64,000 nt of DNA from an uncultured candidatus Porisulfidus sp. (GTDB taxonomy: Bacteria; Pseudomonadota; Gammaproteobacteria; Poriferisulfidales; Oxydemutatoraceae): NCBI GenBank assembly GCA_965200865.1, contig CBDAVG010000002.1, forward strand, positions 2,130,712 to 2,194,711. The letters are read 5' to 3'. How positions within the stretch are numbered: the stretch's first letter is position 1; each line of letters opens with the position of its first letter. The position numbers and the translations under genes were made by a program. The notes under the pieces are model-generated. The model was given only the letters and a program-made list of their open reading frames with translations. It had not been told where the DNA came from and did no database searches. Positions 17,870-26,517 of this stretch are shown one piece after another.

Positions 17870-19630
17870 ATGCGAAATATAACGATACAAGAGGCAATAA
17901 AAAATATCAGTGCGAGGGAGTATCTTCTTCCTGCCATTCAAAGAGAGTTTGTTTGGAACACATATCAAATTGAGCGTTTGTTTGACTCCCTTATGCGAGA
18001 TTATCCAATTGGTACATTTCTGTTTTGGCGCGTAGAAGGTGAAGAAATCGGCGAATTTCAGTTCTATGAATTCTTCCGTTATTATCATCAAAAAGATAAG
18101 AGACATAATGAGAAAGCCGATGTTAAAGGTAAACCTAGTGTTACCGCTATCCTTGACGGTCAACAACGCCTTACTGCACTTTATTTAGGTTTGCACGGGT
18201 GGCATGCTACCAAGTTAAAACATAAACGATGGGATGACCATAATGCTTATCCTCCGAAAAAACTTTATTTAAATTTACTTGCTCCTCCCTCACCAGACAG
18301 TGAATGTGAATATGACTTTAAATTTTTAACAGACAAAGAATCGGAAGAAAGAAACGACAAAGTCTTTTGGTTTCCCGTTGGGAAAGTGTTGGACTTTCAT
18401 AAATCTAACGATTCTTATAAATACCTGCAAGAGAATCAACTAACTGAAATCTCAACAGAGCAGGCAGACTTTGCGAGCGAGACTCTCACTAAACTTAGAG
18501 AAGTTATTCATAAGGACACATTGATAAACTACTTTCTTGAAGAGAATGAACTCCTAGACAAAGTTTTGGATATCTTCATCCGTATAAACAGCGGTGGAAC
18601 GAAATTAAGTTATTCTGATTTGTTGCTTTCTATTGCAACGGCACAGTGGGAAGAAAAGGATGCACGGGAAGTTATTACAAAATTTGTTGATGATCTAAAC
18701 AATATAGGTAACGGTTTTTCTTTTAATAAGGATTTTGTATTGAAGGCTTGCCTTGTCCTGAGCGACTTTCCCAGTATTAAGTTTAAGGTACACAATTTCA
18801 ATAAGAAAAACATGCGCCAAATTGAATCTGACTGGGATAGCATATCAAAGGCTATTGAAGAAGCCGTGGGTCTTGTGTCTAACTTCGGGTTCAATAGAGA
18901 TACTTTGCCTTCTATGAACGCTGTTATTCCCATTGCGTATTATCTGCTGAAGGCACACCCTAATAGTTTTTGTGAATCGTTAAGCCATAAGGAGGAACGA
19001 AACAAGATTTTTAATTGGTTGATTAGAGTTTTGTTGAAGCAAACCTTTGGCGGACAGTCTGACAGCATTCTAAGCAGAATACAGTCAATCATAGGAGACA
19101 ACTATAAAACAGGCTTCCCGCTACATCAGATTGCACGCTCCCTAAGAGTAGAGCCAACAAAGTCCATTATATTTGCACCAAATGAAATAGAAGATCTTCC
19201 CAATCGGCCTAATAATAGATATGCATTCCCTTCATTGGCTGTTGTTTATCCAACACTAGACTTCAGAAATAAGTTTCACAAAGACCATATTTTCCCAAGA
19301 AAATTATTTAGCCGAGAAAAACTGCTTGCGCAGGGCGTATCAGAAGACAAGGTTCAATTTTGTCTAGAAAATTACAATACCTTAGCCAATCTCCAACTTC
19401 TTCCTGGAACAGAGAATCAAGAAAAATCTGCGAAACTTCCTAAAGTATGGATGGACGCTACTATGAATGAACAGGAACAAGAGTCTTACAGGAAGATGCA
19501 CTTCATACCGAGAGATATCCTCTTATCGTTAGATAACTTTAAGGAGTTTATTGAAAAAAGAAGAGAATTGTTGGTTGAGGAGTTCTCAAAATATCTTAAA
19601 ATGTCGGATGACGGTGTTGCTTATAAATAG
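17870..19630 (+). CDS. GmrSD-family type IV restriction endonuclease (DUF262 ParB-like NTPase + DUF1524 His-Me finger nuclease)
   Basis: 586 aa; 'LLPAIQREFVWNTYQIERLFDSL' and 'ILDGQQRLTALYLG' (DUF262 DGQQR); C-terminal 'FHKDHIFPRKLF' (DUF1524); markedly AT-rich relative to neighbours. Confidence 0.8.
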   Translation: MRNITIQEAIKNISAREYLLPAIQREFVWNTYQIERLFDSLMRDYPIGTFLFWRVEGEEIGEFQFYEFFRYYHQKDKRHNEKADVKGKPSVTAILDGQQRLTALYLGLHGWHATKLKHKRWDDHNAYPPKKLYLNLLAPPSPDSECEYDFKFLTDKESEERNDKVFWFPVGKVLDFHKSNDSYKYLQENQLTEISTEQADFASETLTKLREVIHKDTLINYFLEENELLDKVLDIFIRINSGGTKLSYSDLLLSIATAQWEEKDAREVITKFVDDLNNIGNGFSFNKDFVLKACLVLSDFPSIKFKVHNFNKKNMRQIESDWDSISKAIEEAVGLVSNFGFNRDTLPSMNAVIPIAYYLLKAHPNSFCESLSHKEERNKIFNWLIRVLLKQTFGGQSDSILSRIQSIIGDNYKTGFPLHQIARSLRVEPTKSIIFAPNEIEDLPNRPNNRYAFPSLAVVYPTLDFRNKFHKDHIFPRKLFSREKLLAQGVSEDKVQFCLENYNTLANLQLLPGTENQEKSAKLPKVWMDATMNEQEQESYRKMHFIPRDILLSLDNFKEFIEKRRELLVEEFSKYLKMSDDGVAYK

Positions 19631-19710: not shown

Positions 19711-19755
19711 GAGCGTCCATGAGGGCATACTGAGAATAATGAATAGGAGTTGACA

Positions 19756-20274
19756 ATGAGACAGATTGCATTAGACACCGAAACTACCGGATTTGGACCA
19801 AGCAAGCATCGGATTGTAGAAATTGGTTGTGTTGAAATCGTAGACCGCACTATCACCGGACGTAATTTTCATTCCAAGATAAATCCTCAATGCGAAGTGC
19901 ACGAAGGTGCCACGGCAACCCATGGTTATACATGGGAGATGCTTAAAGATAGTCCGTTGTTCGCTGATATTTGCGATGAATTTATATCCTTTGTACAAGG
20001 TGCACAAATTTTGATACAAAATGTGCCGTTTGATTTGCCATTTTTAGACAGCGAACTGCAACGTTTGGGATGCGGAAATTTTACTGCAGAAGCCCAATGT
20101 ACTGTTGTTGATACGTTGAGAATGGCTGAAAAACGTCACCCTAGAGGTGAAAACTCACTAAATGCATTGTGCAACCATTATGGAATTGATAACAGCCACC
20201 GCAAGTTCCACGGTGCGTTGAAAGATGCGAAGTTATTAGCGCAGGTTTATTTGGCAATGACGAGCGACCAGTAA
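19756..20274 (+). CDS. stand-alone DnaQ/epsilon-like DEDDh 3'-5' exonuclease
   Basis: Exo I 'ALDTETTGF', Exo II 'NVPFDLPFL', Exo III 'HGALKDAKLLAQVY'; ~173 aa. Confidence 0.8.
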   Translation: MRQIALDTETTGFGPSKHRIVEIGCVEIVDRTITGRNFHSKINPQCEVHEGATATHGYTWEMLKDSPLFADICDEFISFVQGAQILIQNVPFDLPFLDSELQRLGCGNFTAEAQCTVVDTLRMAEKRHPRGENSLNALCNHYGIDNSHRKFHGALKDAKLLAQVYLAMTSDQ

Positions 20275-20313: not shown

Positions 20314-20461
20314 GGACTGTTGAAAAAGTGTCTGCATTAGTACATTCCCCTCCTTTGGAGGGGTGGCAGGCGAAGCCTGACGGGGTGGTTGTTAAGGTTC
20401 TGAACAATGTTACGCCGATTGACCTACTGGCTCAATCGGCGGTTCTATTTTTCAACAGCCC
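20314..20461. mobile_element. MITE (~148 bp) with IS-type TIRs, flanked by ACAT(G) direct repeats
   Basis: 'gggactgttgaaaaagtg' ... 'tctatttttcaacagcccc'; internal hairpin E and hairpin A; 'acatg' at 20309-13 and 20462-66. Confidence 0.7.
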
Positions 20462-20647
20462 CACATGTTCTCCCGTAACGCGTTGCGCCTGCAAAAACAA
20501 TCCATTCATGCGTTTCGTTTATGGAAACCATACAGATGGCGCAGGTGGTTGGAATCGTACAGATACGACACGCTCGGATGGTTTGCATGATTATGTGGCG
20601 CATAGCGGTTAAGATGGTACAGGTACAATACTTTAGGGAGGGCATGT

Positions 20648-22297
20648 GGGACTGTTGAAAAAGTATTTGATATAAGCGAAAATAGACAACTGATTCAACC
20701 GGAGATTTTTATGCAAGGCAATCATAACTTTCAGCCTGAACTATTTGTCCAAATAGACTATCAGGCACTCATTCCTACCAATCATTTATTAAGGCGTATC
20801 AATAAAGTTTTAGACTTGCGCTTTGTTAAACAATTAACCAAAAGTTTTTATAGTGATACGCAAGGTAGACCGTCAATAGACCCGGAAGTGTTTTTCCGTA
20901 TTTGTATATTAGGACACATTTATGGGATTAAATCAGATCGTCAATTGTGTGACGAGGTAGCAATGAACCTCGCCTATCGTTGGTTCGTCGGATTAACGAT
21001 GAGTGATGAGGTGCCGGATCATTCGTCATTAACTCGTGTTCGAGATAGATTGGGAGTTGGATGTTTTGCGTCGGTATTTGAGCAAATAGTAGAACAATGC
21101 CGTGATGCCGGCTTAGTGCCTGGCAAGCGTATCATAACGGATGCGAGTTTAGTAGAGGCGAATGCGTCGGCGAGGAAACTAGAGAGACGAGAGCAGCCGG
21201 CACAGGCAATAGAAGTCAAGGATGAGAGTCAACAAAGCAAGGAAGTAGTGTCACAAACTGCGGTAGTAAAAAGAGAAAAAGTCAGCACCCGTACCCATGC
21301 CGGTAAAGTAGATGGTGATGCGAGTTTAGTTGAGGCGAATGCATCGGCACAGAAATTAGAGAAGCGAGAGGAGCCAATACCAGCAGTAGAAGTTAAGAAT
21401 GAGAAGCAGCAAAGCAAAGCAGCGGTCTCGCAAACTGCGGTAATAAAAAGAGAAAAAGTCAGCAATCGCACGCATGTGAGTAAAGTAGACAGCGATGCGA
21501 CTTTAGTCAATCGTCAGGGGTATCCAAGAAAGTTATATCATAAGGTGCATTATTGTGCCGATGCAGCTAGCCGGGTGATAACCGATTGCCATGTGACCAC
21601 GGGTGCCTATCATGAGACTAATGTGATAACACAGAGGATTCAATATCAACAAGAACGTTTTGGATTGCCGGTTGAAGAGGTGATAGCAGATGTCGGCTAC
21701 AGCAGTGGCAAGAATTATAAGTTCTTTGAAGAACACCAGATACGCAGCTATATCCCGACTGCCAAGTTTCGTCTGACGCCTGGTAAGCAAGTAGCCCATG
21801 AAGGCAATTTCCAGTATGACCCCAATAAAGACATCTATACCTGTCAAGCGGGTCATGCGTTACATCCCAAACCTGCAGTCGGCGCAACGAAGTATTACCA
21901 TATCAAGAAAGCACATTGTAATAGTTGTCAATGGCAGAATAGTTGCTACTTGGGCAGGCGTCATACGGGTCTATACCGAAATGAGCATAATGCGGCGATA
22001 GAACGAGTAAGACAACGACAAAGCGGTCCAGTCTTTAAGCAAAAAATGATAGAAAGAAGCTGGAAGATAGAGGGCTTATTTGCTGAGGCAAAGGAGCGGC
22101 ATGGGTTGAGGCGGGCAAAATATAGAGGTTTGGAGAAAACGCAGATCCAAGCCTACCTAACTGGGACCGCTCAGAACCTAAAGAGGCTAGCGGTTTCTTT
22201 AGATTTTTATTTTCATTGGATCAGATTTCAGTTTATACAAAGATTTTTATTATTGCGGTATAGTTTCCAAGGATAAAGCTACTTTTTCAACAGCCCG
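20648..22297 (+). mobile_element. IS1182-family insertion sequence, copy 2 (165 bp shorter than copy 1), TSD ATGT
   Basis: TIRs 20648-20665 / 22280-22297; ATGT at 20644-47 and 22298-301; again inserted in GGGAGGGCATGT|TAGCCCTCCC. Confidence 0.8.
20711..22276 (+). CDS. IS1182-family DDE transposase, two 57-aa linker repeats
   Basis: 521 aa, ~90% identical to 1073..2803 outside the repeat region. Confidence 0.8.
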   Translation: MQGNHNFQPELFVQIDYQALIPTNHLLRRINKVLDLRFVKQLTKSFYSDTQGRPSIDPEVFFRICILGHIYGIKSDRQLCDEVAMNLAYRWFVGLTMSDEVPDHSSLTRVRDRLGVGCFASVFEQIVEQCRDAGLVPGKRIITDASLVEANASARKLERREQPAQAIEVKDESQQSKEVVSQTAVVKREKVSTRTHAGKVDGDASLVEANASAQKLEKREEPIPAVEVKNEKQQSKAAVSQTAVIKREKVSNRTHVSKVDSDATLVNRQGYPRKLYHKVHYCADAASRVITDCHVTTGAYHETNVITQRIQYQQERFGLPVEEVIADVGYSSGKNYKFFEEHQIRSYIPTAKFRLTPGKQVAHEGNFQYDPNKDIYTCQAGHALHPKPAVGATKYYHIKKAHCNSCQWQNSCYLGRRHTGLYRNEHNAAIERVRQRQSGPVFKQKMIERSWKIEGLFAEAKERHGLRRAKYRGLEKTQIQAYLTGTAQNLKRLAVSLDFYFHWIRFQFIQRFLLLRYSFQG

Positions 22298-22390
22298 ATG
22301 TTAGCCCTCCCCTACCGTTTTCTTAAATTTAATGGCGCGAAGCGGTTGAGTTTTTACAATGGCAGTACTTTTTCAACAGCCCCACATTTC
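22298..22390. repeat. palindrome half + MITE right-end remnant
   Basis: 'atgttagccctcccctacc...ggcgcgaagcggttgag...gtactttttcaacagcccc'. Confidence 0.5.
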
Positions 22391-22631
22391 AACTTTGGGT
22401 TGACAGATTATGTACGATGTCTGTAAGCACAAAGTTCAAATGTCACTCCTCCAGAGGAGAGGAATGGTCTGCCCCACCATTCTTTTGTGCAATTTGATAC
22501 CGTTTGTCTAATATCTGCTACTGTTCGTCGGTTTGCCGAATCTTGGTAACACACTCTGTGCTATTGGTATACGTAGCGAAACCTTGCTTTAGCAAGGTGT
22601 TTATTTATAATCTAACAATAGGAGAAAAGAG

Positions 22632-22841
22632 ATGAAAATAACCAACGAAAAACTATACGAAATGATAGTTGATATGCGTACGGAGTTTAAGTCTGAGATA
22701 GCGGAAATAAAAGCAGCTCAATCGGAACTCAGAGCAGACATCACAAAATGGGGTGTTGCATTATTCATTGGGAGCATAGTCGCAATGACCTCAATCATCG
22801 GCGTATTCTTGGCAAGCGTTGTGTTGACGGTGGCATCATAA
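22632..22841 (+). CDS. XhlA-like small tail-anchored membrane protein (N-terminal coiled coil + C-terminal TM helix)
   Basis: 69 aa 'MKITNEKLYEMIVDMRTEFKSEIAEIKAAQSELRADITKWGVALFIGSIVAMTSIIGVFLASVVLTVAS'; architecture like haemolysin XhlA; its last 20 codons are duplicated at 24798-24857. Confidence 0.5.
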   Translation: MKITNEKLYEMIVDMRTEFKSEIAEIKAAQSELRADITKWGVALFIGSIVAMTSIIGVFLASVVLTVAS

Positions 22842-22984
22842 ATGTTTGTAAGCAATCCCAGATGCGAGCGTTGGTACGGTTTATATTTGCTACTTGACTA
22901 GTTTAGGAACTAAGATTCGGTACAATAACTAGTAATGACAACGAAAAACAGACATTTTAGAAGGACACATATTTCAAACAGGAA

Positions 22985-23604
22985 AATCAGGGTTGTGTGA
23001 GATACTTTGTCCTTGATCTGAGTGCGACTTAAATCGCCCAAGCAGCTGAGGTGAATAGGAATACAGTGAACAGATATGTAAATATAATCCGAAAAAAATT
23101 GCACAGCACTGCGAGTAGACGAGTATATTCTTTGGCGAGGTAGAGTTGAATGAGTCCTACTTCGGTGGTAGTAAAAAAGGAGATAAAAGGGGTAGAGGCG
23201 TACAGAACAAAGTGCTGGTATTTGGCATATTGAAAAGAGATGGGAAGGTCTATACACAGGTGATACGGAACGCTTCCAAGAGTGAAATACGTGCTCTTAT
23301 CAAACGTTTAGTAGGACATGAGAGTACCATCTACACTGATAAATGGAGAGCTTATGACGGGTTAGTATTGAACGAATACAAACACTATCAAATCAATCAT
23401 TCAAAGACAATGGGCAGTGGTACTAGACATATCAATGGCATTGGAAATTTCTGGGTTGGGCAAAAAGGAGATTAACAAAGTTCTGTGGAGTATCTAGAAA
23501 ACATTTTCATTTTCACCTAAAAGAATGTGAATGGCGGTTCAATAATAGACACCTTTCAGTTTCCCAAAAGTATGATATGCTAATGAAGATGGTACGGGAT
23601 ATTT
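22985..23604 (+). pseudogene. IS1595-family transposase, frameshifted/truncated remnant
   Basis: HTH-like 'DLSATKIAQAAEVNRNTVNRYVNIIRKKL' (frame a), catalytic 'GDKRGRG...VFGILKRDGKVYTQVI...IYTDKWRAYDGL...INHSK...INGIGNFW' (ORF 23146..23475), then frameshift to 'KRRLTKFCGVSRKHFHFHLKECEWRFNNRH' C-terminal signature. Confidence 0.65.
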
Positions 23605-24029
23605 GAGTGAGATTTTGTCCCTAAACTAGTCAAGTACCATACATAATCTGCAAACCGAATATTTAACTCTTTCTTTGCCGGCTTCTTATTCCAACCACGT
23701 CACTACTTTATGCTCTGTTGAAAATATCTTTAGCAGTTTAACTATGCTAATTGTTTTAGCCACTTTATTCATTGTTTAGTCTCTTTAATTGGAATAGCCT
23801 TCAAGACCTGAAAGTGTTATATAATCAGTCTTTTAACTGAACCTTGTAGATTTATGTATATAATTCCCTAAATTTTGGGTTGACAGCTTTTAAAAGTCCA
23901 ATATGTATCTGGCATTATTCAGTGAAAAATCAAAAATAATTATTTTTCACCCATTGGGTGAATTGGTAATTTATATAAGAGTATTGCAATATAAGAGGTT
24001 ATAGCCTTTTATAGTTCTCTATTGAAGAA

Positions 24030-24686
24030 TTATTGGGTGATAACGCCATACAGAGCAAGAGTAATAGCTAATATGCCGCCTATAACTGCTGGTAATTTCC
24101 AGTTCACAGTCTCTTTTAGATTGTCTACTGTTATCACTAAGGTTTGCAGAATCCTCATCATCTCAGTTTGTGACATATATTCACGCTCCAATGCAGTTTT
24201 GATATCTTCAGGCATCAGACTATCTCGTCCTTGGTACGGACCTTCATAGGGTGTGGATGACGGCTGATCAAGGCGATGAAACTCAATTGTCAAAAATCTA
24301 TCCTTATACGGCAAGACGATTGGTTTGCTTGATAAGTTAGTCAATCCGATAATTAACCGCCCTTCAAAACCAGGGTCAACTTGAGGTCCGACCGTAGCGA
24401 GCAAACCTTTGCGTGCGTAAGAACTAGTCAATCCAAAACGGGCTGTATGTTGTAAGTCTAGTGCTAATTTTTCGTGTGTCAGCATAATAACAAAATCCCC
24501 TGGCATGATTTCTATAAAGGCCGTTTTGGTTAAATCTAATACTTCTTTTTTAGCTGAACTGGCTGCTTGATCACCGACTCGTAAATCATAAGATGCCGGC
24601 TGTAATAGCTCTTCAAAAAAAGGCTCTATCACTATGGACGAACCGTTTTTACATGTATTAAGTATGTCTTTGTTAGAGAGAATCAT
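24030..24686 (-). CDS. dCTP deaminase/dUTPase-fold protein with catalytic Glu replaced by Gly and a C-terminal XhlA-like coiled-coil + TM anchor
   Basis: 'MILSNKDIL...ASYDLRVG...TSSYARKGLLATVGPQVDPGFEGRLIIGLTNLS' aligns to Dcd ('DPGWSGCIVLEFYN' in E. coli; E138 aligns to G); C-terminal 60 aa 'TEMMRILQTLVITVDNLKETVNWKLPAVIGGILAITLALYGVITQ'; AT-rich. Confidence 0.6.
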   Translation of the reverse strand: MILSNKDILNTCKNGSSIVIEPFFEELLQPASYDLRVGDQAASSAKKEVLDLTKTAFIEIMPGDFVIMLTHEKLALDLQHTARFGLTSSYARKGLLATVGPQVDPGFEGRLIIGLTNLSSKPIVLPYKDRFLTIEFHRLDQPSSTPYEGPYQGRDSLMPEDIKTALEREYMSQTEMMRILQTLVITVDNLKETVNWKLPAVIGGILAITLALYGVITQ

Positions 24687-24797
24687 GTAATACCATATAC
24701 CTATATTTAATTAATTTCAATAATTTTGTAGTATAACACATGCTGTCAACCCAAAGTTGAAATGTCGGGGTGTTGCATAATCCATCAGGAGTATCGT

Positions 24798-24857
24798 TGT
24801 GATGACCTCAATCATCGGCGTGTTTTTGGCAAGTGTCGTGTTGACGGTGGCATCATA
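24798..24857 (+). repeat. duplicated 3' fragment of the xhlA-like gene ('MTSIIGVFLASVVLTVAS*')
   Basis: ~90 bp at 24790-24880 matches 22775-22875 including stop and 3' flank. Confidence 0.7.
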
Positions 24858-24889
24858 AATATTTGTAGGCGACCCAGATACGGTGTGTT

Positions 24890-25370
24890 GATGTGGTTCA
24901 TATTTTTTATTTGTTGATAATGCACTAGTGCAGATACGATGCAACCACCCCGTCAGATAGAACCGCCGATTGAGCCAGTAGGTCAATCGGCGTAACATTG
25001 TGCACTCCAACATGATTGCTAAACGCATACATTACAAAATGCATAGGCCCGCCACCCCTCCAGAGAAGGGGAATTGTTTGTGCAGGCGCAACGCGTTAGA
25101 AGTAGTTATTGTAAATTTGGTGGCGCGGAGCGGTTGGGGTTGTGCAGGCGCAACGCGTTAGGGAGGGGAATTGCCTAGTGCAGATACGATGCAACCACCC
25201 CGTCGGGCTGCGCCCGCCACCCCTCCAAAGGAGGGGAATTGTTTGTGCAGATGCAACGCGTTAGAGTTGGTTATCGTAAATTGAGGGGCGCGGGGCGGTT
25301 GGGGTTGTGGTTCGCGTAATTATAGGGCGCGGAGCGGTTCGATTTGTGGTTTTTGTGAATTTGTGGGGTG
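24890..25370. repeat. dense repeat cluster (hairpin A, hairpin E x2, 'ggcgcggagcggttg' modules x4)
   Basis: 'tagtgcagatacgatgcaaccaccccgtc' occurs twice (24925, 25180); 'ggcgcggagcggttggggttgtg' repeated. Confidence 0.65.
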
Positions 25371-25371
25371 G

Positions 25372-26517
25372 CTATTGCATGATGTCAAGGTGACCGTCTT
25401 CGGGTCTCATTGACTCGGCGCGTAATCTGATGAATTCTTGGAAGTCTTGGGGTTTTGCGTAAGCCTGTGTTAGCACATATTCCATTGCCGATTGTACATG
25501 AAAGGTTTTCACATAGCCTTCAACGCGAAACACTTCGGCTAATGGTTGGCTTTCGGTTTGCCGTGCATAAAAGACCAAAGAAGGGGTGTATTCAATGTCT
25601 AGCTTACGCGCCCATTCTTTTTCGTTTATTTCGTCACCGCCATCCAGTGGCACAAGGGTCTCTTTGCCGTTGACGTTAATCATTACGGTGTCAAATTGTT
25701 GATATAGTTTATCGGTGGCTTCTCGTTTCAGAATATCAAGATGTAATTCGTCGCACGCCAAGCAGCGTGGTTGTTCAAACAGAACCAAAACAGGTTTTTC
25801 CGCTCCTAAAGTTTTTTCAGTCATATCAAGCGGCGGGCGCAGCACCTCTGGGGTATAGTGAATCTTATCGGCTGCCGGCGATACTTCTTTGGTTTGCAGG
25901 AAATCTATGAAGGTTATGTCTTTAAGGTAGTGTTTGTCGGTTATATATTCCAGCATTGTAAGGAACTTATGCGGTGGATAATAGCCGTTCATGCGAAAGA
26001 CTTCTCCCAGTGGAGAGAAGAAAATCATCGTCGGTGTGAATTGAATTTTTCGGTGTTCGGAAAAAGCACTTTCCGGTCTCGGAATACCGTCTAGGTCGGT
26101 TACTTCGACAGCACCGAAGATGTTAATTGGTGCGATGTTAAAGTTTGCTTTGGCATATTCGTTAATGCGGTATTGTCCGAAGTTATCGTCGATTAACTTT
26201 TCACAATAAGGACAGCCGTCCTGATAAAAATAGAGTCCGTAGTGTTTGTTTTCGGCTGCCGATTCTTCTACATCCTCGGCAATATCCAAGAAAGACATGC
26301 CGAACCAGTCGGGTTTTTCTTGTTCAAAGACATTGCTCATAGAGCCGTCGTCGTCTGGCTGAATCGCCGGCGAACCAGCTTCGTCTTCGGCGACTGCCGC
26401 TGAACACACTGCGATGAGTGTCAGGCAAGCAAGCATCAATACATTTTTATTGAACCACAGTATTGCTTGCAACATGCAGTTGCGGCAGGGGATGTAATCA
26501 AACGCCATCTTATTCAC
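25372..26517 (-). CDS. periplasmic tandem thioredoxin-fold protein (two CxxC domains: CPYC and CLAC), SoxW/TlpA-like
   Basis: 381 aa with signal/TM; 'YQDGCPYCEKL' and 'EQPRCLACDEL'. Confidence 0.6.
   Translation of the reverse strand: MNKMAFDYIPCRNCMLQAILWFNKNVLMLACLTLIAVCSAAVAEDEAGSPAIQPDDDGSMSNVFEQEKPDWFGMSFLDIAEDVEESAAENKHYGLYFYQDGCPYCEKLIDDNFGQYRINEYAKANFNIAPINIFGAVEVTDLDGIPRPESAFSEHRKIQFTPTMIFFSPLGEVFRMNGYYPPHKFLTMLEYITDKHYLKDITFIDFLQTKEVSPAADKIHYTPEVLRPPLDMTEKTLGAEKPVLVLFEQPRCLACDELHLDILKREATDKLYQQFDTVMINVNGKETLVPLDGGDEINEKEWARKLDIEYTPSLVFYARQTESQPLAEVFRVEGYVKTFHVQSAMEYVLTQAYAKPQDFQEFIRLRAESMRPEDGHLDIMQ

Follow-up and report, generated by a model that had tools for sequence, protein, structure and literature searches.

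The dUTPase/Dcd superfamily is among the best-studied folds of nucleotide metabolism, and its bacterial deoxycytidine triphosphate (dCTP) deaminases and archaeal deoxyuridine triphosphatases (dUTPases) are the closest described counterparts of a gene located in a 64,000-nt stretch of DNA from an uncultured 'Candidatus Porisulfidus' species (contig CBDAVG010000002.1, positions 2,130,712 to 2,194,711; hereafter the window). The gene, on the minus strand at 24030-24686, encodes a protein in which a Dcd/dUTPase-fold head is followed by a coiled coil and a single C-terminal transmembrane (TM) helix; the protein and its homologs are referred to here as the Dcd-TM family. A first-pass annotation, generated by a model from the letters of the window, had proposed that the protein, apparently inactivated and membrane-anchored, could be a dCTP sensor or binder coupled to a membrane-disrupting XhlA-like module, and had compared its tail with the product of a small neighboring gene.

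The closest solved relatives, of the Pyrococcus furiosus P45 and Thermococcus pacificus type (phmmer E 4.5e-27), are archaeal monofunctional dUTPases that share the fold and 36-40% identity over residues 15-157 (38-40% for 9ln0/9ln3, 'A thermostable enzyme dUTPase P45', and 36% for 8y1w, 'Thermococcus pacificus dUTPase complexed with dUMP'). Foldseek superpositions give target-normalised TM-scores of 0.92-0.93 for 9ln0 and 8y1w, with a root-mean-square deviation of 1.3-1.7 Å, and 0.89 (2.1 Å) for 9ln3. The archaeal enzymes and the Dcd-TM family have in common 'ASYDLRVG', 'RSS..R.G', 'DPG(F/W).G', and the 'PY.G.YQG' lid, and neither group has the deaminase Glu, the position being held by Met ('GNLTLMLYN') in the former and by Gly in the latter. 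They differ in that the archaeal dUTPases are soluble proteins of approximately 155 aa with neither coiled coil nor TM helix, whereas the Dcd-TM family is tailed, and in that the former keep the motif-IV Gln ('FVQIAF') where the latter carries 'FLT(I/V)EFH' with an invariant Glu and His. Among cultured phages, the best matches are likewise archaeal-virus dUTPases (SIRV, STSV), which correspond to the domain only.

Bacterial Dcd and Dcd:dut enzymes, represented by Dcd of Escherichia coli (1xs1) and Dcd:dut of Mycobacterium tuberculosis (2qxx/4a6a), Methanocaldococcus jannaschii (1ogh), and Bacillus halodurans (4xjc), belong to the same superfamily with a trimer-type fold and are 20-31% identical to the window protein, which retains their Ser, Arg, Asp, and lid. 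Their catalytic Glu (E138 in E. coli and E145 in M. jannaschii, marked by the mutant entries 1xs4, 2hxd, and 3gf0) is Gly here. These enzymes are soluble housekeeping proteins of approximately 160-200 aa that have no membrane tail, whereas Dcd-TM members carry a 60-aa extension, are patchily distributed, and show no synteny. The anti-phage dCTP/dCMP deaminases DcdV and AvcD, which combine a zinc-dependent cytidine deaminase (CDA) motif (HAE...PCxxC) with an N-terminal P-loop kinase, are of an unrelated fold; neither an HAE nor a PCxxC motif occurs in the Dcd-like protein sequence, which contains a single Cys, and a Pfam scan of the protein detected neither of these two domains. The parallel that the first-pass annotation drew with these defense proteins is thus tenable at most as a functional analogy (phage defense by one protein that targets deoxypyrimidine pools) and not at the level of fold.

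XhlA, PHROG 1193, and CCDC90-like/DUF1640 (PF07798) proteins resemble both the Dcd tail and a 69-aa protein encoded nearby in consisting of a helix or coiled coil, a Trp, and a single C-terminal TM segment; nevertheless, no lysis-cassette context with holin and endolysin genes exists here, the neighbors being IS remnants and REP-like repeats, and the tail matches neither PHROG 1193 nor the family of the 69-aa protein. No description of a membrane-anchored Dcd/dUTPase-fold protein, and no superfamily member with the active-site constellation described below, was found in the literature searched, solved structures, BFVD, PHROGs, or PADLOC, in keeping with the earlier statement that the architecture had not been described. 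A 2026 machine-learning study (DefensePredictor) lists 'dUTPase' among unvalidated predicted defense domains, with no architecture that could be compared.

Fold and Active Site

The Dcd/dUTPase fold named in the first-pass annotation is borne out by several lines of evidence. Pfam DCD (PF22769) covers residues 2-138 (E 5e-21, 75.8 bits against a cut-off of 27), NCBIfam TIGR02274 scores 106.8 bits (cut-off 92.8), and PHROG 1663 'dCTP deaminase' matches at E 2e-30. An AlphaFold2 monomer model built on an alignment of 41 diverse family members (mean predicted local distance difference test score, pLDDT, 86.8) consists of a beta-barrel at residues 1-155 followed by an uninterrupted helix at 159-217, and with this model Foldseek retrieves Dcd/dUTPase structures at E 1e-17.

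HMMER alignments to solved enzymes pair 'GRLIIGLTN' of the Dcd-like protein with 'GQITLELFN' of the B. halodurans enzyme (4xjc) and 'GHITLELSN' of the M. tuberculosis enzyme (4a6a), so that Gly114 occupies the deaminase-Glu position and the Glu-to-Gly replacement is confirmed. Gly is found at this position in 95 of 101 family sequences and in all 41 members of the diverse alignment. The same alignment identifies R83, G85, L86, S88, A91, G94, T98, D104, P105, and G109 as invariant, along with L111, G114, N117, E135, H137, L139, Y147, Q152, and L157, while at least 90% of the members keep R92. The residues that contact the nucleotide are kept family-wide (Arg and Ser of 'RSS..R.G', Asp and the aromatic residue of 'DPG[FY].G', and the Tyr/Gln lid); in the window protein, the Ser/Arg set is complete (R83, S88/S89, R92, and D104), as are the DPG[FWY] motif and lid residues D104, F107, Y147, Y151, and Q152. 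The head should thus be competent for nucleotide binding, as judged by the residues kept.

These observations speak against the claim that the protein is inactivated. In addition to the near-invariance of Gly114 and the full complement of nucleotide-binding residues, purifying selection is evident among Porisulfidus orthologs, with nonsynonymous-to-synonymous rate ratios (dN/dS) of 0.19-0.24 overall and 0.10-0.16 in the barrel, the tail reaching up to 0.5. Moreover, the closest archaeal dUTPases are active even though they too are without the Glu; its absence therefore does not show inactivation and, on the alignments, marks a non-deaminating branch of the fold. By these measures the protein is constrained, with a remodeled active site, rather than decaying. 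Classification as a canonical dUTPase is not warranted either, because the motif-IV Gln has changed as well: its position is Thr133 in the window protein and Thr or Ser in the family consensus. Beyond Thr133 on the same strand lie Glu135 and His137, two family-specific invariants whose positions are occupied by Ala/Ile, Val/Ala, and Cys/Leu in solved relatives. The Dcd-TM family accordingly adds both a new architecture and a new active-site constellation to the dUTPase superfamily.

Coiled-Coil Stalk and Transmembrane Anchor

The extra tail of approximately 60 aa, with a coiled coil and one TM helix, was likewise correctly recognized in the first-pass annotation, as seen from the continuous model helix and from residues 198-216, whose Kyte-Doolittle hydropathy of 2.2 compares with a family median of 2.56. 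The lid, 'PY.GPYQ.R', runs directly into 'L.PEDI..V.ERE.MS..EM..L..L..V..L...W', which is followed by the TM helix, and the near-invariant hydrophobic a/d positions L180, L183, V187, and L190 of the 41-member alignment have 3-4-3 spacing. The distance from Gln152 to the interface Trp was counted in 91 non-identical family members that have this Trp (related sequences, for which the count is descriptive and not a probability): it is 43 in 23 sequences, 46 in 32, 50 in 2, 53 in 24, 60 in 5, and 64 and 67 in one each, so that 88 of the 91 fall within the series 43+7n or 46+7n, and it is off phase (47, 54, and 63) in one sequence each. Insertions in the stalk therefore come as whole heptads, which fits a coiled-coil stalk that needs to maintain register between head and membrane. 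Nearly all members end within 0-6 residues of the TM segment, the sequence of which is the least conserved part of the protein except for its hydrophobicity and the spacing of its small residues.

When a tail-only profile was run against 1.84 billion representative proteins, 111 matches resulted, essentially all of them to this family or to fragments of it that are N-terminally truncated and start within the barrel; many partial matches also fell in two or three long, repetitive proteins and are taken to reflect coiled-coil composition. By this search, the tail is specific to its own family and is not a shuffled module, and the idea of a portable module fused to other effectors was rejected. 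Nor does any hidden Markov model support the description of the tail as 'XhlA-like', Pfam XhlA (PF10779) having no match at E<=1 to either the Dcd-like or the 69-aa protein.

Two smaller observations concern the ends of the protein family. The TM end of the window protein is six residues shorter than that of a Porisulfidus ortholog (locus L003, 10649-10675), with homology stopping about 2-3 codons before the stop codon (24033-24041), and an AT-rich spacer starts where this homology ends; the 3' end of the window gene may have been replaced by rearrangement. In another protein, P0272 (183 aa), an unrelated N-terminal stretch of 95 aa precedes the C-terminal portion of a Dcd-like family member (final strand, lid, stalk, and TM helix), and the gene is probably a disrupted one.

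Distribution and Mobility

A search for homologs carrying the same fusion revealed a conserved family that extends across many phyla. Protein searches recovered at least 232 relatives in a family of approximately 220 aa, and the best 120 of these are nearly all 214-244 aa long with 84-100% query coverage; the closest (84-88% identity) are from 'Candidatus Porisulfidus'. A pattern scan of one genome per species located 217 loci in 185,579 genomes, distributed over the Gamma- and Alphaproteobacteria, Acidobacteriota, Verrucomicrobiota, Nitrospirota, Thermodesulfobacteriota, Planctomycetota, Chloroflexota, Actinomycetes, Bacteroidota, and Marinimicrobia, with metagenome-assembled genomes (MAGs) of sponge symbionts making up many of the loci. 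The gene is present twice in several genomes; these cases include a duplicated segment of 2.2 kb (98% identity) and one pair in tandem. In IMG/VR, ten contigs carry relatives, and in at least four of these the gene resides inside a real phage genome with terminase, portal, head-tail adaptor, tail fiber J, and Mu-type transposase genes.

The homologs are not syntenic housekeeping genes. In three Porisulfidus-like genomes, the Dcd-TM gene occupies a different chromosomal site in each, and nucleotide homology among them is limited to the gene and approximately 57 nt upstream (beginning at 24743 in the window); in each, palindromes resembling repetitive extragenic palindromic (REP) sequences are found close to the gene. 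No neighbor recurs: when 862 open reading frames (ORFs) within 6 kb of the gene in 73 loci were clustered all-against-all, the largest cluster reached 12 of the 73 loci at a median distance of 3.8 kb, and a conserved partner gene or operon was rejected on this basis. The overall picture of the Dcd-TM gene is that of a mobile accessory gene that stands alone and resides in variable regions and prophages.

Genomic Context

In the window, the Dcd-like gene is 4.4 kb from a GmrSD-like (DUF262) type IV restriction gene, after which comes a 174-aa DnaQ-like exonuclease ORF (19750-20274) that was recognized by reading the translation rather than by profile search; together, the three look like a small defense-type neighborhood. 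Elsewhere, locus L001 combines hsdM-hsdS with an MNT/HepT pair and with SIR2 and DUF87 (SIR2-HerA-like) genes, locus L002 has Fic followed by Cas4-Cas2-Cas1-Fic-Cas9, and in loci L094-L096 the gene is part of a helix-turn-helix (HTH)-MmeI-[Dcd-TM]-HTH island flanked by an amine oxidase gene on one side and the ccm operon on the other, while the surroundings of L097 and L098-L101 are purely housekeeping. The 136 nearest neighbors include mobile and conflict-related genes (IS1, Mutator, rve, and IS240 transposases; S24 peptidase and HTH regulators; Fic/SoFic, type I and IIG methyltransferases, AbiEi, and mads- and PDC-type matches) as well as housekeeping genes (tRNA synthetases, purD, and FTHFS). 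Co-localization with defense genes, raised in the first-pass annotation, is hence seen for several homologs and not for others, and the context is compatible with a conflict role.

As a side observation, the MmeI-type IIG restriction-modification (R-M) gene of the island is intact in L095 and L096 (5044-7842) and reduced to a 99-aa C-terminal fragment in L094 (7543-7842), these being three co-occurring strains; the Dcd-like gene is intact and identical in all three.

Possible Functions

The reading favored here, with moderate confidence, is that of a cytoplasm-facing, coiled-coil-tethered homotrimer that binds and probably hydrolyzes a deoxypyrimidine triphosphate, with a lid coupled to the stalk and a role in phage-host conflict. 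Given the universal trimeric state of the fold, the protein would assemble as a homotrimer in which the three helices form a parallel coiled-coil stalk and a three-helix anchor, leaving the enzyme head facing the cytoplasm. The head would bind, and most likely hydrolyze, a dUTP- or dCTP-like and possibly modified substrate, acting as a pyrophosphatase rather than by deamination. Because the lid is only about five residues from the stalk, its closure is probably coupled mechanically to the membrane-anchored coiled coil. The role would be one of defense or exclusion, or of nucleotide-pool control by phages, rather than housekeeping dTTP synthesis. If the family does act on nucleotide pools from the membrane, it would represent a new architecture for nucleotide-targeting immunity, of which dCTP deaminase, dGTPase, the ATP nucleosidase effector of Detocs, and NAD depletion systems are known forms, and it would offer a natural setting in which to study the gating of a C-terminal lid by a coiled coil in an enzyme of the dUTPase fold.

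Several points count against this reading. The motif-IV Gln is present in all four solved relatives among the alignments listed, and with its replacement by Thr or Ser, canonical dUTPase chemistry cannot be taken for granted; nucleotide might be bound but not turned over, or Glu135 could be used for deamination. A membrane tether brings no obvious benefit to an enzyme acting on a freely diffusing metabolite. The geometry of the trimer and coiled coil is presumed from the general trimeric state of the fold, and in the monomer model the stalk has a pLDDT of 55-66. Several genomic contexts are purely housekeeping, and the PADLOC scan that compared the 136 nearest neighbors with 104 distal genes (>=7 kb) yields family counts only, with a control dominated by redundant methyltransferase models.

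Among the alternatives, the plainest is an ordinary phage or host dUTPase that prevents uracil from entering DNA and is localized to the membrane (e.g., at a site of replication or DNA entry) with no immune role. It accommodates the bona fide dUTPases among the closest relatives, the presence of family members within phage early regions (phage-encoded dUTPases being common), and those bacterial contexts that are housekeeping and stable across samples; nevertheless, it appears unlikely in view of the patchy occurrence over the species genomes scanned, a position that varies even among congeners, the replaced motif-IV Gln with its accompanying new invariants, and a TM tail that is present in no solved or cultured-phage dUTPase/Dcd aligned and in no relative in BFVD. 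A deaminase whose lost catalytic Glu has been replaced by Glu135, on the motif-IV Gln strand and presumably next to the Gly114 strand, is quite improbable. In its favor, Glu135 and His137 are invariant and family-specific, Gly114 would leave room for a neighboring side chain, the protein still has Ser88 and Arg92, two residues that assist deamination in Dcd, and TIGR02274 is matched above its cut-off; against this, the nearest relatives are non-deaminating dUTPases. The same TIGR02274 score, and the name 'dCTP deaminase' given to homologs in public sources, are all that a housekeeping dcd or dut has in its favor. That assignment is highly improbable when set against the absent catalytic Glu, the TM tail, the lack of synteny, the multiple and sometimes phage-borne copies per genome, and the insertion sequence (IS) and REP debris that flanks the gene. 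The TIGR02274 equivalog passes Glu-less proteins, which are therefore annotated 'dCTP deaminase'; these names are probably a systematic misannotation, one that touches metabolic reconstructions of sponge symbionts and other MAGs.

Two further alternatives give the membrane a more active part. One builds on the sensor idea of the first-pass annotation: in a catalytically dead dCTP/dUTP sensor, nucleotide binding, or its loss during infection, would be relayed by the coiled coil to the TM helices, which would oligomerize and permeabilize the membrane (abortive infection). The deaminase Glu and motif-IV Gln are indeed both missing, the lid is contiguous with a phase-preserving stalk in a manner that fits mechanical signaling, the small-xxx-small spacing of the TM helix (e.g., G203/A207/A211) favors helix packing, and defense genes are neighbors at several loci. 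On the other side, the TM helix is the least conserved part of the protein and lies in a tail with dN/dS of up to 0.5, which makes it a better anchor than effector; a pore built from a single helix of each subunit would be minimal; the appearance of Glu135, His137, and Asn117 as invariants suggests an active site that was rebuilt rather than decayed; and no homology to XhlA or holins and no match to any PADLOC model, in a profile scan of the Dcd-like protein, were found. Nothing specific supports this sensor, and it is regarded as rather improbable. Somewhat easier to entertain, although still doubtful, is a single-gene, membrane-coupled immune or exclusion module in which the rebuilt pocket of a trimeric head recognizes or destroys phage-specific deoxypyrimidine triphosphates and is gated via the coiled coil. 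Gly114 would open space at the pyrimidine C4/C5, with Glu135, His137, and Asn117 as new ligands, and the targets would be the dUTP of dU-DNA phages or 5-hydroxymethyl or otherwise modified dCTP/dUTP. Membrane events such as DNA injection or holin action would gate the activity or, in the reverse direction, nucleotide binding would be signaled to the membrane; a place beside GmrSD, a modified-DNA restriction enzyme, would be complementary.

The Surrounding Variable Region

The features of the window that bear on the Dcd-like gene are collected in Table 1.

Table 1. Positions of the Dcd-like gene, its domains and key codons, and nearby features in the window.
Feature	Position	Strand	Basis or remark
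GmrSD-like (DUF262) type IV restriction gene	17870-19630	+	PF03235 GmrSD_N, E 1.2e-32
REP-like palindromic repeat, left boundary of variable segment	20401-20448		Inverted partner 24957-25004, 98% over 48 nt
IS1182-like element	20644-22387	+	Transposase 20711-22276 (DUF772, DDE_Tnp_1_6); 22-nt terminal inverted repeats
Gene for 69-aa coiled-coil/TM protein, lineage-specific multicopy family	22632-22841	+	Helix, Trp40, hydrophobic 41-69 (hydropathy up to 2.5)
Degraded IS1595-family element	22881-23646	+	Partial DDE ORF 23146-23475; PF12762, E 1e-21; NF033547
AT-rich non-coding spacer downstream of Dcd-like gene	23647-24029		GC 0.30; third AACTTTGGGTTGACAG copy at 23871-23886
Gene for tail-anchored Dcd/dUTPase-fold protein, 218 aa	24030-24686	-	Stop codon 24030-24032; 100% match to P0001 (NCBI/ENA, 2.49-Mb contig)
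C-terminal TM helix (tail anchor), residues 198-216	24039-24095	-	Hydropathy 2.2; 2 residues beyond
Coiled-coil stalk, residues 157-197, up to interface Trp196	24096-24218	-	Single model helix, conserved a/d positions, heptad spacing
Nucleotide-binding barrel, residues 1-155	24222-24686	-	HMMER alignments and codon map; pLDDT 86-97
Lid Tyr147/Tyr151/Gln152	24231-24248	-	Key barrel codons
His137	24276-24278	-	Key barrel codon
Glu135	24282-24284	-	Key barrel codon
Thr133	24288-24290	-	Key barrel codon; motif-IV Gln position
Asn117	24336-24338	-	Key barrel codon
Gly114	24345-24347	-	Key barrel codon; deaminase-Glu position
Asp104	24375-24377	-	Key barrel codon
Arg92	24411-24413	-	Key barrel codon
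Ser88	24423-24425	-	Key barrel codon
Arg83	24438-24440	-	Key barrel codon
Promoter-like site upstream of Dcd-like gene	24720-24749	-	TTGACA, 18 nt, AATTAT; consensus match only
Inverted IS1182-like right end plus 26 nt flank, adjoining truncated small-gene copy	24736-24780		Partner 22369-22413; 84% over 45 nt
3' fragment of second small-gene copy (codons 41-69 plus about 20 nt)	24767-24875	+	84% identity to 22750-22858 over 109 nt
REP-like palindromic repeat, right boundary of variable segment	24957-25004		Inverted partner of 20401-20448

The Dcd-like gene lies in a segment (20450-24950) bracketed by a REP-like palindrome and rich in IS debris. The AT-richness pointed out in the first-pass annotation holds, the G+C content being 0.30-0.41 across the Dcd-like/IS1595 region versus 0.45 for the whole window, and so does the description of the IS1595 element as dead: its DDE domain spans positions 8-122 of 153 in one frame, the upstream frame carries stops, and the inverted repeats (22881-22934 and 23593-23646) are degenerate, with 72% complementarity. 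The supposed island between direct repeats, in contrast, dissolves on inspection. The duplication of the end of the small gene is real, although its coordinates are those of Table 1 and not 24790-24880 (tblastn of the small protein, 86% over residues 41-69); what appears as a repeat is left over from another, paralogous copy of the small gene that adjoins an IS-end remnant. The idea that the repeats bound a cassette or target site was therefore rejected, the two being 84% identical coding sequence of paralogs, one of them cut at that remnant.

Coupling of the Dcd-like gene to the 69-aa gene fares no better. The architecture of the small protein (coiled coil, Trp, and TM helix) is as first described; the label 'XhlA-like' is not sustained by Pfam and is left with a weak match to PHROG 1193 'hemolysin' (E 1.3e-3; 3e-4 to 1e-3 with paralogs), and CCDC90-like/DUF1640 (PF07798) matches the small-protein family below its cut-off. 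In a tblastn search, the small gene was present in none of the 80 other genome loci of the Dcd-TM family, and hhalign of the small protein with the Dcd tail gave a probability of 28% that extends over the TM helix only. With the multicopy nature of the small-gene family, these results led to the pairing being rejected. As for a regulatory RNA such as AvcI, which serves AvcD, Rfam and tRNA scans of 22200-25400 gave no match. On present sequence comparisons, the local arrangement was shaped by the activity of IS and REP elements within a variable region and is not a two-gene system framed by cassette repeats.

The only good promoter-like site 5' of the Dcd-like gene takes its TTGACA from the IS1182-like right-end remnant, and this -35 box falls within the repeated motif AACTTTGGGTTGACAG. 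The motif occurs three times in the window, at 22391-22406(+), 23871-23886(+), and 24743-24758(-), where 0.03 occurrences are expected; it borders the right end of the IS1182-like element and is a candidate for an outward-facing IS promoter.

The small-protein family is restricted to the lineage, with 80 matches, at least four of them on the same 2.49-Mb contig and several on other contigs. Its members, of 58-109 aa, have a conserved N-terminus ('MNITNEKLYEMI'), a very conserved end containing the Trp and TM helix ('SELRADI.KWGVALFIGSIVAMTSIIGVFLASVVL'), and a variable count of 'EFKAEI'-type repeats in between. The copies in the window (22560-22841 and 24767-24875) and in locus L083 (5990-7511 and 11769-12038) share a leader hairpin, ACCTTGC-TTTA-GCAAGGT, followed by TATAAT and then a ribosome-binding site. 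On another metagenome contig, four small-gene copies with the same promoter-hairpin leader are situated between duplicated gene fragments and a CfrBI-type R-M system; such clustering at the junctions of duplicated fragments and R-M genes suggests a recombination hotspot or a contingency-type gene.

Lastly, the repeats themselves merit description. A perfect 29-nt REP-like palindrome, CGCCGATTGA(G/C)C...TCAATCGGCG, is present 12 times in the 64 kb, with none expected by chance, the cores being at 851, 5656, 20413, 24964, 35862, 35934, 42900, 46654, 49495, 52059, 55527, and 55832. Each palindrome forms part of a larger repeat of about 100-150 nt; these larger repeats bracket the variable segment and also occur no more than 200 nt from the Dcd-like orthologs of L003 and L004. 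In the IS1182-like transposase ORF, an in-frame 177-nt tandem duplication (21140-21493, 79% identity) repeats 'DASLVEANASA.KLE.RE.P' between the DUF772 and DDE domains.

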